64,000 nt of DNA from Cyanobacteria bacterium P01_A01_bin.123 (GTDB taxonomy: Bacteria > Cyanobacteriota > Cyanobacteriia > Phormidesmidales > Phormidesmidaceae), in the NCBI GenBank assembly GCA_039815185.1, contig JBCBZT010000009.1, positions 64,001 to 128,000 of the forward strand. Reading direction: 5' to 3'. Positions 29,801 through 32,800 of the stretch are shown piece by piece. A program made the position numbers. How positions within the stretch are numbered: the first letter of the stretch is position 1; every line of letters begins with the position of its first letter.

Positions 29801-32800
29801 CATAAACTGCGATGGATTAGGATTGAAAAATAGTACAACGGGTGTATCTTTGATGGAATGTTCGGAAAATTATGTTGCCCATATTGAATCAATCAATCAG
29901 TCTTTTAGCAATATTGAAAAACTATCCCCTTGGTATCAAGGAGATCACATGCTATTTGCCTCGGCACAAGTCCCGACCCTTGCGATAACGTCCACCGGAA
30001 TATTTGAGCTGATGGATACTATTATCCATACCCAGAACGATAAACTAAACTTGGTTGATCCAGAATTGATTGGTGAAGTTTGCCTCTTCTTACAGCAGAT
30101 TATAAATTCGAGCAATTTAGACTAACCCTTCAACACGTCTGTATTACCGTAATCTGTAATTGAAGGAAATTGGTATATAGGTTTCAGTTGAGTAGATTTT
30201 GTCAGACATATTTCGTCCAATTTGAACGAAATATGCCTGACACGATAATCTCGAATGTATGACAACTGCGCATTGAGTTGCCGTAGAACCTACATTTGTA
30301 GATTGAGTCGAGTCAGAGATTACAAAGCGTGCACCTTCTGCTGTACTTCCGCAAACGCTTGTTCAGGACTCAAGGGTTTGTAAGTCAGATTCGACACCAC
30401 AATAAATACCACCAGGCCAATCACTGGACTAATCATTGTGGGGAGCCCATCAAACGCAGCGGTAAAGAGCGAATTGGGAATATACAGCAGTGTGTTGTCC
30501 ACCCCAAACATTGTCGGCATCAGCACAAATAAAGAAAGTCGAGTCAGTGACCCAATAATGATGCAAGCTAAAGCACCCTGCCAAGTCGCACGACGCCAAA
30601 ATAAACCCCCTGTTAAGGGCACCACTAGCCCCGCAAATCCGAGATCAAAAGCTAACAATAACAGCACCCCCGTCTGCGGTACCCGAATGGCAAAAAATAC
30701 CCCCAGCAAGGTGATAAACACCGCCATGAGTCGGGTAATCAGCAGCAGTCTATCCCCACCAGCGCCATGGGCATTACTATGTCGAATGCCTAAGACGTTA
30801 TGGGCAATGACGGATGAGGTTCCTAAAATTGCCCCATCAGCCGTGGACAACGAAGCTGACATAATCGCCGCAATCACGATCAAACTCAAAACAGGGGGCA
30901 CCACATTTTGCAGCAATGCAAAGAGCACTGGCCCATCAGCAGTTACCCCCACCTGTTCTAGGATGCGGTTGGCAGATAGGGCAATGACAGAAAAAGGAAT
31001 CCCAATGATCAATGTGCCAGCAAAGCCGATAAAGCAGGCTCTTTGAGCCGTTTCTGGACTTTCAGCTGCAAACACTCGGGCCATAAAATCAATGGCAACA
31101 ATGTCGCCTAACCCCAGTGCTAGGATGGTGGCCCAGTTAATCGTGGCTCCAGCATCTGCAACGGTGAGCTGCTCAAAGTCAAAGGGACCCATGCCCGCAG
31201 GCACCGTCAAGCCAAAGGTTGTGCCGATAAAGCCAATCAGCAACAAAGACCCCACTAAGGCAATCAAGACCTGAATCGCATCAGTGTAGGCCACGGCAAA
31301 CAATCCCCCAGAAACCGTGTAAACAAACACCAAGGAAGCAATCAGCGTTATTCCCCCGATATACCCAATGCCCAGGAAGGCTTCAAACAAATATCCCCCC
31401 GCGACTAAGTTTCCTGCAAGTAAAAATGAAAAGCTCAACACCATAATTACGGCAGCGACGAACTCTGTCGTGCGGCCATATTTGACTCGGTAAAAATCAG
31501 GCAGGGTAATTAAGCCCATTCGATTCAAAGGCTTAGCGTAGAACAGCCCCGTGAGCAGTAGACAAAGGGCGAGTCCAATGGGTAATGATGCGCCAGCCCA
31601 AAAGCCAAACGCTGCTGACAAATCGGTGTTACCTAACGTCGCGTTAGAATCCACTGACTGAGCCATCAATGTCGCCGCCGCCAGGGGTAAGGTCAGGCCC
31701 CGACCCGCTACCAAAAAATTAACGCTATCGCCTTTAATTTGCTGAGATGCCCAGACACCAACACCTAACGTGCCTAAGAGGAATACGATAATTCCCCAGG
31801 AATAAATCGTGTTTTCCATGTCCTATTCTCCTAAGTTATGAGCTGTAACCTCTAAATAGGTAGCAACAACAAAGCCCGAGAGAAATTGGCGATCTCTTAA
31901 CAAGATCAACCAATATCTCCCGGGCTTTTATCCCTCCGTGAACCAAGGTAAATCGCACTTAATGCATTTACCCTAGCTGTATCTCTTGGACCAGACACTC
32001 AACCGATAAGTTGAGTCGGAACCCTAGATACAATGTCTATAAATCGTTATTTGCAACCGCCATTTAGCAGTGAAGAAAAGATGCAGTCAAAAACGGATTA
32101 AGTTCTCGCAAGCTGCATCAATTAGTTACTCGTATTGTTATCAATAGTCCTCAGACTAATAAGTATTGGCTGATACGGTTATGTCTTTTAAATGTCAACA
32201 TTTCATAGTCTTTTGTCTTAGCAAATGAATGAACGAAGCCCCGTAGAATTCGTATAGTCTCTGGACATGATTAAAAACTGATCTTGACTGCCACGTTTCA
32301 TAAACGTCCCTACGGGCTCAAATCCTAGCTTTTGCCAGACTCGCTGTGCCCGCTGATTAAAGGCTGCGATGGTTACTCGTAGGATTGACGCACCATAGCA
32401 GGCTCTACCGTATTGCACTACTGCTTGGGCGTACTGCACACCACGCTTTTGCCCCGTTAAATCAGGTCGAATTCCCATGCCGATGTCTAAAGCGCCAGGA
32501 GGATAGCTGCCACCGGGGACTTGGCCATCCGTACCAAAGGAACAATACCCCTCTAACTCTCCATCAGGATTCAAAATGGCATAGAAAGCGTTTCTAGGGT
32601 TGAGCAAATAGGTGAGATCGTCTTCTATGGTTGTGGGACTAAAGTTATACCCCTCATAGGGTGGATCATAGTGCCAGGTGAATAAGGCCAGTGCATGGTT
32701 TTTATCAAGCGGTAGAAACTTCAAGTCCATAGCAACCGCTGCCATTGTAGGCGTCTTAAGATTGTTGCTGAAACTGCTGACTCAAAAATTGTCGGAACAC

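Follow-up and report, generated by a model that had tools for sequence, protein, structure and literature searches.

A 64-kb stretch of cyanobacterial DNA (the window) carries a guanidine-I riboswitch aptamer, an intrinsic terminator and a promoter-like box in front of a gene for a sodium:solute symporter family (SSF) transporter, and the gene contexts of this transporter are conserved among its relatives. The unit is probably a self-contained guanidine-uptake module, in which a Na+-coupled importer feeds GdmH and is induced by guanidine and nitrogen limitation. Family, regulation and neighbourhood point to guanidinium as the likely substrate of the SSF protein and to uptake as the likely direction of transport. 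An initial annotation of this DNA had named the protein a candidate guanidine carrier, and our analysis supports that reading: among the best 80 of 209 orthologue loci, 56 carry an aptamer in cis, the gene is linked to gdmH-ghaAB, an NtcA-type box precedes the aptamer, and the triad of aptamer, gdmH and SSF gene recurs on high-GC non-cyanobacterial contigs.

Guanidine has only lately been recognised as a nitrogen source. The importer candidates known so far are the ABC system GimABC (described in passages of PMC12704784) and an APC-family permease in nitrifiers (PMC11410670), and the cyanobacterial work, in the same passages of PMC12704784, leaves a second, lower-affinity uptake route without an assigned carrier. 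The initial annotation had put the SSF protein forward as possibly the ABC-independent route postulated for Synechocystis. The SSF subfamily described here is a concrete and easily testable importer candidate, consisting of a single gene and a compact regulatory leader. Our literature search found no report linking guanidine to the SSF/SSS family, though an earlier mention may stand in the gene lists of the papers that first described guanidine riboswitches, reportedly Nelson 2017, Sinn 2021 and Funck 2022. The words "symporter", "sodium" and "SSS" are absent from PMC12704784, its preprint and the review PMC12186494, as are "symporter" and "solute" from PMC11410670.

Table 1. Elements of the riboswitch-transporter unit, in order of transcription (window coordinates)
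Element	Position	Strand	Basis or remark
NtcA-type box GTATCAGCCAATAC (GTA-N8-TAC)	32163-32176	-	read on the sequence and by script search
Extended -10-like element TGATAACAAT	32134-32143	-	hexamer TAACAA, 22 nt after the NtcA-type box
Leader of about 90 nt, putative start site to aptamer	32039-32130	-	poorly conserved; hairpin, then U run
Guanidine-I riboswitch aptamer (RF00442)	31915-32038	-	Rfam covariance model match
Intrinsic terminator (expression platform)	31865-31925	-	fold and conservation in relatives
Shine-Dalgarno-like AGGAG	31828-31832	-	8 nt ahead of the ATG, read on the sequence
SSF-family transporter gene, 499 aa	30320-31819	-	ORF and Pfam SSF (PF00474)

The aptamer scores 89.1 bits against RF00442 (cut-off 63, E 1.2e-14) over model positions 1-107 of 107 and is the sole Rfam match over the cut-off in the whole window; a permissive Rfam scan of 31780-32240 (E up to 10) gave no other riboswitch family. 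Its core blocks CTAGGGTTCC, GGTCC.AGAG and ACGG.GGGA.AAAAGCCCGGGAG are common to 55 further aptamers, and 34 columns are invariant among the 56 aligned. In an alignment of 63 aptamers, which was fitted to the covariance model and hence favours the structure by construction, 95.7% of cells pair, and in 19 of 27 pairs both sides have changed in a compensatory way; none of 500 shuffles matches this level, and slid controls reach 23-49% paired. The RNA thus is a confirmed member of the guanidine-I class (ykkC subtype 1). Guanidine binding by this particular aptamer is expected from its class, in which selective guanidine binding and guanidine-dependent read-through were demonstrated for the Synechocystis gdmH aptamer (passages of PMC12704784).

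A whole-genome search with RF00442 returned exactly two matches, the window's aptamer and C101:67966-68126(-), which scores 73.5 bits. The latter leads a unit of gdmH, ghaA, a GS-like gene, ghaB and a NitT/TauT-type ABC system (gimABC). The initial annotation had reported the window's aptamer as the second of the genome, and we recovered it with the same score and strand; it had placed the other ahead of gdmH-ghaA, which holds, the unit continuing to ghaB and the ABC system. It was also right that a 499-residue sodium:solute symporter gene lies beside the window's aptamer, although the distance from the aptamer end (31915) to the ATG (31819) is 95 nt by recount and not the 96 nt first given.

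The putative promoter lies ahead of the aptamer. Its NtcA-type box lies 42 nt past the stop codon of the upstream GNAT gene, at -138 from the aptamer start; the consensus box and its position near -42 are taken from passages of PMC12704784, which also describe NtcA-type control of gdmH and gimABC in Synechocystis. Of 45 SSF-proximal aptamers in related loci, 32 have a perfect GTA-N8-TAC box in the 300 nt ahead of them, mostly between -111 and -168, against about 2.5 expected from a background of 0.056 per 300 nt (125 boxes counted in 667,578 nt). In an alignment of 16 leaders, the GTA and TAC columns are invariant, as are the T, G, T and A of the TGnTA in the -10-like element. By motif and spacing (GTA-N8-TAC, 22 nt, TAACAA), the region resembles an NtcA-type promoter, at which NtcA would bind and from which transcription would start as predicted in Table 1; expression should therefore be favoured under nitrogen limitation. 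Of 12 sequencing runs listed with this stretch, none is on record as RNA. The segment running from the putative start site to the aptamer differs in sequence and length among the 16 leaders, and its fold (-19.7 kcal/mol, z -1.5) is not significant.

The leader has the design of a terminator-type ON switch. The 5' arm of the terminator is the aptamer's own 3' strand, GCCCGGGAGA, and the 3' arm is UCUCUCGGGC, followed by UUUGUUGUU. The fold of 31845-31945 reaches -44 kcal/mol (z -6.4), which none of 200 shuffles equals, and the hairpin also forms when the whole leader is folded. A simple terminator scan did not pick it up, its stem exceeding the length that the scan rule allows. Of 46 SSF-proximal leaders, 43 contain, further downstream, a segment with which all 8 nt of CCCGGGAG pair, and 35 of the 46 also have at least 5 U within the 10 nt that follow. 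An ON design in which the terminator overlaps the aptamer 3' strand has been described for guanidine-I riboswitches (passages of PMC12704784).

The protein matches PF00474 (SSF, TC 2.A.21) with 113.1 bits (cut-off 22.8) over profile positions 1-406 of 406, and TIGR00813 with 113.8 bits, under its cut-off of 184; it reached none of the NCBIfam equivalog models. Assignment as a PutP Na+/proline symporter was rejected on scores far under the cut-offs (TIGR02121, 111 bits against 515.5; NF011948, 57.7 against 955), and assignment as an APC-family permease on the absence of TIGR03428 from its NCBIfam matches (8 families at E 0.001 or better). The AlphaFold model (pLDDT 91.6, pTM 0.91) has helix breaks at residues 56-57 and 242, which correspond to the TM1 and TM6 breaks of a LeuT-type fold, and its top fold matches are CHT1, SGLT2, SiaT and NIS (TM 0.7-0.8). 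A close relation to the DUR3 urea transporters (PDB 9j7c, 9x5u) was likewise discarded: although they belong to the same SSS superfamily, have the same fold and transport a small, planar nitrogen compound akin to guanidine, they are larger proteins, only 16-17% identical, that appear at fold ranks 33-38 and do not occur among the 11 solved-structure chains matched by sequence at E 0.001 or better.

By sequence and fold alike, the nearest solved structures are choline transporters, namely CHT1/SLC5A7 and bacterial sfCHT (PDB 8j74, 9bfi, 9rws; PMC11589582; bioRxiv 10.1101/2025.09.30.678764), which are Na+-coupled carriers of a small organic cation (sequence E 3e-23 to 2e-21; fold E 3e-17, TM 0.77-0.81). 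The Na2 site is kept: CHT1 A60, A343, S346 and S347 align with A53, A322, S325 and T326, which do not vary in 79 cyanobacterial members. Of the three Na3 residues, two (D180, D328) are shared. These residues suggest that transport is coupled to Na+. The choline site differs. The CHT1 aromatics W62, Y67, Y91, W141, W254 and W406 correspond to S55, A60, L83, L133, A242 and L387, replacements that are unchanged or nearly so across the SSF subfamily, and the Cl- loop 63-VGGGY-67 corresponds to 56-VDSNA-60 with an invariant Asp; this reading of the substrate site was mapped by hand from one pairwise alignment at an overall identity of only 22-24%. With both the aromatic cage and the Cl- loop absent from this alignment, the protein does not fit a CHT1-type choline transporter. 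D57, N59, D66, D244 and D392 are invariant in the subfamily, and D57 lies in the predicted TM1 break, where its neighbours carry Gly. S/A55, D57, N59, L133 and D392 provide a signature for finding further relatives.

To examine recurrence, we took the best 80 of 209 relatives as orthologue loci and searched these directly with a covariance model built in this analysis beside Rfam RF00442. In 46 of the best 80 of 209, a same-strand aptamer precedes the gene by 81-220 nt; 39 of the 46 reach the Rfam cut-off, and the other seven comprise five under the cut-off (35 to 60.6 bits), one detected by our own model only and one fragment at a contig end. In nine more of the best 80, the SSF gene lies 1.1-3 kb behind the aptamer, with gdmH intervening in eight and, by Pfam, ghaA and ghaB also in seven; a further locus has the aptamer 4 kb ahead. 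An aptamer-led unit thus precedes the SSF gene in 10 of the best 80 of 209 loci, nine being gdmH-ghaAB operons. Another 10 of this best-80 set are devoid of an aptamer but adjoin gdmH or ghaB, so that a link to an aptamer or gdmH is found in 66 of the best 80 of 209, across several cyanobacterial clades in the tree. The association with gdmH-ghaAB, in the same operon or divergent, extends over many lineages, and one locus has gdmH-ghaA-ghaB-SSF-gimA-gimB-gimC on a single strand. The initial claim that the aptamer-SSF pairing recurs in other cyanobacteria is therefore borne out, and the pairing is commoner than it stated.

Neither aptamer nor gdmH is nearby in 11 of the best 80 of 209 loci, and 11 of the 14 genomes whose loci lacked both links or were too short carry gdmH elsewhere. 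The neighbours of loci without either link are mostly unrelated; exceptions are an SMR-family gene (L065, L067), an MFS gene (three Acaryochloris loci) and a xanthine/uracil permease (L072). Aptamers are decayed or interrupted in L004, L028, L031 and L080, and L058 and L072 fall within the clade that has its own aptamer, yet their upstream DNA is unrelated or replaced. Relatives about 50% identical adjoin DUF1989 and allophanate hydrolase genes, a context compatible with either urea or guanidine. The window's flanking genes (GNAT, M28 peptidase, AraC) are not recurrent neighbours in the best 80 of 209 loci, and the aptamer switch and the gdmH cluster are therefore the only conserved partners. 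The SSF gene thus comes in three natural arrangements: with its own switch, in a shared operon and with no switch.

In an even sample of 400 cyanobacterial genomes, the SSF gene is patchy (49 carriers). An aptamer lies in cis in 28 of the 49, with 19 over the cut-off directly upstream, 6 distal and 3 under the cut-off, and the other 21 orthologues have none within 6 kb upstream on their own contig. The earlier figure of four aptamers in nine loci agrees with the 19 of 49 for over-cut-off aptamers directly upstream but understates the association once operons and decayed aptamers are counted. Outside the cyanobacteria, 3 of 15 relatives of a Rubrobacterales orthologue, on high-GC metagenome contigs, have an aptamer, a GdmH homologue (63-69% identical) and the SSF gene in this order.

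Given these features, the unit may work as follows. Transcription would start from the NtcA-type promoter. When guanidine is absent, the nascent leader would fold the long terminator hairpin with the aptamer 3' strand, and transcription would stop before the gene; the guanidine-bound aptamer would instead hold this strand in P3, block the terminator and allow the transporter to be produced. The transporter would then import guanidinium on the Na+ gradient, and GdmH with GhaA and GhaB, under the separate riboswitch, would convert it to urea and ammonium. The SSF carrier would thereby offer an ATP-independent route beside the high-affinity GimABC of the same genome. The need for a second importer is an assumption, because GimABC already lies behind the other riboswitch and one relative has both in one operon. 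As a counter-point, a carrier that moves Na+ together with another cation would be strongly electrogenic, and guanidine is toxic above millimolar levels (PMC12704784).

Three other explanations were weighed. The first, which we regard as unlikely, is that guanidine is the signal only and that the SSF protein carries another nitrogen compound, be it urea or methylguanidine, agmatine or a guanidino acid. Gene context is unable to separate guanidine from such close analogues, the pathway of the DUF1989 and allophanate hydrolase genes beside the 50% identical relatives was first assigned to urea, and DUR3 does occur among the fold matches. However, what the switch senses is, by its class, guanidine, and its constant partner GdmH is selective for guanidine according to passages of the review PMC12186494. 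For urea in particular, importing the product of a co-induced hydrolase makes little regulatory sense, and in the fold search DUR3 reaches E values of about 6e-9 to 2e-8 against 3e-17 for CHT1.

The second, quite improbable in our view, is that the SSF protein exports guanidine as a safety valve like Gdx or MepA, holding the cytoplasmic level under toxicity. To our knowledge, the SSS members characterised so far (TC 2.A.21) are all uptake systems, and none is known to export. The kept Na2 site fits inward Na+-driven symport, the SSF gene shares one operon with catabolic gdmH-ghaAB in at least nine loci and with gimABC in one, the NtcA-type box ties it to nitrogen scavenging and not to stress, and the SMR-family neighbour in two relatives would be redundant if both proteins exported. 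On the other side, most of the guanidine-riboswitch-controlled transporters described are exporters (passages of the review PMC12186494), and guanidine is toxic to Synechocystis above 5 mM (PMC12704784). Moreover, a family search of this genome gave no match to SMR/Gdx, and the argument that export is already covered therefore fails.

The third, that the riboswitch is dead or the pairing a historical leftover beside a transporter for an unrelated substrate, draws on the decayed, interrupted or missing aptamers of some relatives and on the several sources that call members "Na+/proline symporter", but it is very improbable given that the aptamer in the window is full-length and scores highly, that its terminator is intact, that the link to an aptamer or gdmH spans clades as described and that the same arrangement repeats in the high-GC contigs.

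Returning to guanidinium import, we also think it fairly likely that the SSF protein founds a separate SSS subfamily whose members import guanidinium together with Na+, a third independent recruitment after the ABC and APC-family systems. The mark of such a subfamily would be the Asp in the TM1 break, standing where the choline transporters have their Trp/Gly and chloride arrangement. With it, many filamentous cyanobacteria and some high-GC bacteria would have a route for guanidine nitrogen that needs no ATP, is probably of high capacity and opens solely under a combination of scarce nitrogen (through NtcA) and available guanidine (through the riboswitch). If true, this would extend the guanidine regulon by one transporter family, make it easier to predict which cyanobacteria scavenge guanidine and account for guanidine uptake without ATP cost. 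It would also provide an uptake module of one gene and a promoter-riboswitch leader with dual input for the guanidine-inducible expression tools under development for cyanobacteria.

Among known systems, the Gdx (SMR) and MepA-type exporters are likewise membrane transporters turned on by guanidine riboswitches; unlike the SSF protein, they belong to other families and export guanidine by proton antiport. The gdmH-ghaA-ghaB and gimABC genes of Synechocystis sp. PCC 6803 share with the window's unit the aptamer class, the terminator-type ON design, the NtcA-type promoter and the setting, guanidine as a nitrogen source (passages of PMC12704784), and the window's genome has that whole system at its other aptamer. 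In contrast to Synechocystis, the carrier here is a single-subunit SSF secondary carrier and not an ABC system with a binding protein, and its gene lies apart from gdmH behind an aptamer and a putative promoter of its own.

In comammox Nitrospira, a guanidine-I riboswitch, an APC-family permease and a guanidinase (PMC11410670) follow the same logic, combining an ATP-independent secondary carrier with a GdmH-type enzyme. This triad has its counterpart in the operon-type relatives (aptamer, gdmH, ghaAB, SSF) and in the high-GC contigs (aptamer, gdmH, SSF), and both carriers are members of the LeuT-fold APC superfamily. The Nitrospira permease was collected with the models PTHR45649 and TIGR03428, is of the amino acid/polyamine/organocation type and has been proposed to act by proton symport (PMC11410670), whereas the SSF protein matches PF00474 in place of TIGR03428 and has kept the Na2 site.

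The initial annotation had placed a second guanidine-I aptamer ahead of a gene for a transporter of the sodium:solute symporter (SSF) family, P0001, and both features were recovered at those places (see table). RF00442 was the sole Rfam family above its cut-off in the 64-kb window, and a permissive Rfam scan of 31780-32240 found no other riboswitch family, the extra matches being weak and miRNA-like because of a long hairpin downstream of the aptamer. P0001 matched the Pfam SSF profile along its full length (113 bits) and reached no NCBIfam equivalog; PutP was rejected (111 bits vs a cut-off of 515.5). 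The genome (8.09 Mb, 99.99% complete) contains exactly two RF00442 matches. The first gene after the other match, on contig C101, is the guanidine hydrolase gene gdmH (arginase family), followed by ghaA (HypA), a glutamine synthetase (GS)-like gene, ghaB (CobW/HypB) and genes for an NMT1-like binding protein, a permease and an ABC ATPase. With this unit beside the riboswitch-led SSF gene, the organism therefore has the GdmH/GimABC system plus the SSF gene. The C101 permease and ATPase genes are parted by two extra ORFs (217 aa without a Pfam match; 517 aa, weakly matching an MmeI methyltransferase), which may be an insertion into gimABC. A second SSF-family gene of the window is followed by a 99-aa ORF.

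Coordinates of the features (window positions, or positions within a named locus; L083, C101:56000-71000, covers the C101 unit)
Feature	Position	Strand	Basis or remark
Guanidine-I aptamer (RF00442)	31915-32038	minus	Rfam 89.1 bits, cut-off 63, whole model
SSF gene (P0001), 499 aa	30320-31819	minus	ORF; 95 nt past aptamer, AGGAG ahead
NtcA-type box, perfect GTA-N8-TAC	32163-32176	minus	read on the sequence
Stretch between putative NtcA promoter and aptamer	32039-32130	minus	~90 nt; hairpin, then UUUUCUU
Second SSF-family gene, 492 aa	36148-37626	minus	26% identical to P0001, 4.3 kb away, without riboswitch
Permease gene	L083:6005-6844	minus	
ABC ATPase gene	L083:2665-3435	minus	
GS-family gene, 453 aa	L083:8846-10204	minus	Gln-synt_C
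SMR-family genes	L065:3480-3941; L067:3480-3941	minus	PF00893; divergent from SSF gene
Inserted or decayed aptamers	L004:3567-3884; L023:3595-3780; L051:815-1002; L028, L031, L080 near 3785-3906		
DUF1989 gene; allophanate hydrolase gene with TetR regulator	L088:2244-3080; L094:4389-5453	minus	SSF relatives ~50% identical; high-GC contigs
Aptamer and following genes	L104 (G008:C290:500-7000), 666-4246		80.1 bits
Rieske/ring-hydroxylating oxygenase alpha-subunit gene	L105:4963-6087		Pfam

A search of species-representative genomes gave 209 relatives, and the best 80 (58-87% identity) were scanned for aptamers with nhmmer, with the Rfam model on whole genomes and with our own covariance model on the loci. 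Among these best 80 of 209, the aptamer lay 81-220 nt upstream on the same strand in 46, 1.1-3 kb upstream in nine and 4 kb upstream, on the gene's own contig and strand, in one (L069); ten lacked it and had gdmH and/or ghaB adjacent, 11 had neither within the locus DNA examined, and three had too little upstream DNA. Altogether, the switch or the hydrolase genes tied the SSF gene to guanidine in 66 of the 80. The Rfam cut-off was reached by 39 of the 46 directly upstream aptamers; five scored 60.6, 55.3, 42.9, 35.1 and 35 bits, one was detected by our own model only, and one was a 19-nt fragment at a contig end. gdmH stood between aptamer and SSF gene in eight of the nine distal loci, with ghaA and ghaB too in seven, and the ten aptamer-free linked loci were either divergent from gdmH or ended by the contig end. 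Seven loci had two back-to-back aptamers, serving gdmH and the SSF gene respectively, and in one Spirulina locus gdmH-ghaA-ghaB-SSF-gimA-gimB-gimC ran on a single strand. In 11 of the 14 genomes with unlinked or too-short loci, gdmH was present elsewhere (83-89% identity), in most cases immediately following the genome's single RF00442 match. No flanking gene of the window recurred in the best 80 loci. In a FastTree tree the 80 proteins formed one family whose arrangement follows clades: basal Prochlorothrix-like members are divergent from gdmH and lack the switch, the operon type and most losses fall in a clade of 24, and 45 members of a clade of 49, to which the window belongs, have an aptamer of their own. 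The SMR family (PF00893) includes Gdx; a gene of this family diverges from the SSF gene in L065 and L067, in whose genomes neither an RF00442 match nor gdmH was found.

As the 80 loci represent the nearest relatives, we also sampled 400 cyanobacterial genomes evenly across the class, many of whose carriers are also among the 80. Orthologues (E 1e-100 or better) occurred in 49 genomes and 29 of 170 genera, the window's own counted, concentrated in five families. The Rfam model, run on the 49 carrier genomes and compared by contig and strand, showed 19 orthologues with an above-cut-off aptamer no more than 450 nt upstream and two with a direct one scoring below the cut-off; six had an aptamer 2.8-4.1 kb upstream, one a distal aptamer below the cut-off, and 21 none within 6 kb upstream on that contig. 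The earlier figure of four in nine loci is thus near the direct fraction (19/49) and falls short of the total in cis (28/49).

We further examined 20 RF00442 sites from 11 of the relatives' genomes. Behind 18 of them stands either gdmH-ghaAB, in some cases together with gimABC, or a GS-like gene and then gimABC. In several Nodosilinea-type genomes the regulon is thus divided among three switch-led units, one each for hydrolase, ABC importer and SSF. One aptamer has just a short ORF behind it; another (L104) precedes genes for a metallo-beta-lactamase-fold protein, a Bmp/PnrA-like binding protein and a BenE-family transporter, a set unfamiliar for riboswitch control. The GS-family gene is regular in riboswitch-led gdmH/gimABC units (likewise L100, L102, L105, L106, L108, L111, L112, L115 and L118), and in Nodosilinea-type genomes it comes first after its own aptamer with gimABC behind. 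In L105, gimC of the riboswitch-led GS-like-gimABC unit has an oxygenase gene behind it, and similar ORFs come after gimC in L108, L115 and L118, the Pfam check covering L105.

TAACAA lies exactly 22 nt past the GTA-N8-TAC box of the window, with TG ahead of it, and GTA, TAC and TGnTA were the sole invariant columns in an alignment of 16 leaders. Of the related SSF-proximal aptamers, 32 of 45 have a perfect box in the 300 nt before them, most often at -111 to -168; for gdmH-first aptamers the count is 12 of 17, most often at -51 to -64. Such boxes occur at a background rate of 0.056 per 300 nt. For Synechocystis gdmH and gimA, NtcA sites of the form GTA-N8-TAC centred near -42 are described in passages of PMC12704784; by the motif, NtcA would bind the window box and transcription would start downstream of TAACAA. 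Relatives differ in the length and sequence of the stretch between this putative promoter and the aptamer, which shows no significant fold in the window (z -1.5).

The solved structures nearest to P0001 by sequence were choline transporters (9rws, E 3e-23; human CHT1 8j74, E 1e-21), with SGLTs and vSGLT behind. The AlphaFold model, based on an alignment of 44 sequences (pLDDT 91.6, pTM 0.91; helix breaks at 56-57 and 242), retrieved CHT1 first in Foldseek (E 3e-17, TM 0.77-0.81), then SGLT2, SiaT and NIS, and DUR3 urea transporters at ranks 33-38. CHT1 residues taken from passages of PMC11589582 were mapped by hand through a pairwise alignment at 22-24% identity: A53, A322, S325 and T326 of P0001 preserve the Na2 site, and two of three Na3 residues are also present (D180, D328), whereas the six choline aromatics become S55, A60, L83, L133, A242 and L387 and the chloride loop VGGGY becomes VDSNA. 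D57, N59, D66, D244 and D392 were invariant in 79 cyanobacterial and four riboswitch-linked high-GC members and, except for one gap at 392, kept in eight relatives ~50% identical. With 148 clusters at E 1e-30 or better among 1.84 billion cluster representatives, the subfamily is small. Among 69 full-length representatives, Asp/Glu57, Leu/Phe133 and the absence of Trp55 characterize the 16 best (36-54% identity); the remaining 53 nearly all show Trp55 and Gly57, and mostly Trp133, like CHT1 with Trp/Gly/Trp at the aligned positions. D244 is general and not diagnostic. A carboxylate in the TM1 break may serve as a guanidinium ligand, with the caution that the alignment is at 22-24% identity.

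Beyond cyanobacteria, a Rubrobacterales orthologue (58% identical) stands in the order aptamer, 333-aa arginase-family gene, SSF gene. Scanning metagenomes with this protein yielded 15 loci, three of them, on high-GC contigs, with an aptamer (67.9-88.5 bits), a GdmH homologue (63-69% identical) and the SSF gene in that order. The other 12 (49-63% identity; flanking DNA often short) showed no aptamer; of three inspected, one adjoins DUF1989, one allophanate hydrolase with TetR, and one was uninformative. DUF1989 and allophanate hydrolase belong to the guanidine/urea carboxylase route, and such distant relatives fit urea as well as guanidine, which counts against guanidine import. That P0001 carries another related substrate is unlikely.

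To our knowledge, members of the SSF/SSS family are uptake symporters. Four lines of evidence argue for import for assimilation rather than export: the family with its kept Na2 site, operon membership with catabolic genes, the NtcA-type promoter and the resemblance to comammox bacteria, in which riboswitch, permease and guanidinase form a triad (passages of PMC11410670; review PMC12186494). GimABC is already in the genome, and no SMR/Gdx family member (PF00893) was found in it at a rated completeness of 99.99% (the same search was positive in nine of 14 control genomes); both count against guanidine import, and we consider an exporter improbable. The proposal of the initial annotation that this protein is a candidate guanidine carrier is supported, and P0001 is probably a guanidine importer.

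The long hairpin has the aptamer's own 3' strand, GCCCGGGAGA, as its 5' arm and UCUCUCGGGC as its 3' arm, then UUUGUUGUU. This terminator hairpin folds at -44 kcal/mol (z -6.4; equalled by none of 200 shuffles), and the whole-leader fold sets it side by side with the aptamer helices. In 46 SSF-proximal leaders (45 relatives and the window), all 8 nt of CCCGGGAG pair with a downstream segment in 43, in 35 with at least five U within the next 10 nt; the other three are decayed aptamers. An alignment of 56 aptamers from this genome and its relatives has 34 invariant columns, and the covariance model built from it gave 63 matches in the best 80 loci with 95.7% of cells paired, vs 23-49% in slid controls; fitting the alignment to the model favours structure, and the margin is large. 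Both sides changed in 19 of 27 pairs, a level reached by none of 500 shuffles. Some SSF-associated aptamers carry large P1b-loop insertions (under the Rfam cut-off, 65-101 bits with a clade-specific model) and others are decayed (39.6-64.5 bits), which suggests that some lineages are losing the switch. About two-fifths of the orthologues lack a switch in cis, which also counts against guanidine import; that the window's switch is dead or irrelevant is very improbable.

The window leader shares the terminator/anti-terminator design of guanidine-I ON switches outlined in passages of PMC12704784. The RNA parts are those of a textbook ON switch, and the new part is the controlled gene: the literature searched, with the gene tables of the earliest riboswitch papers outside its scope, gave no link of guanidine riboswitch or guanidine hydrolase to a sodium:solute symporter, and the term does not occur in the key papers searched. 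The Nitrospira permease of the comammox triad belongs to another family, with collection models PTHR45649 and TIGR03428 (PMC11410670), to which an NCBIfam search gave no match for P0001. In Synechocystis, an uptake route beside GimABC has been inferred without an assigned carrier (passages of PMC12704784), and we suggest that a P0001-type gene, patchy as it is among cyanobacteria, could account for this route.
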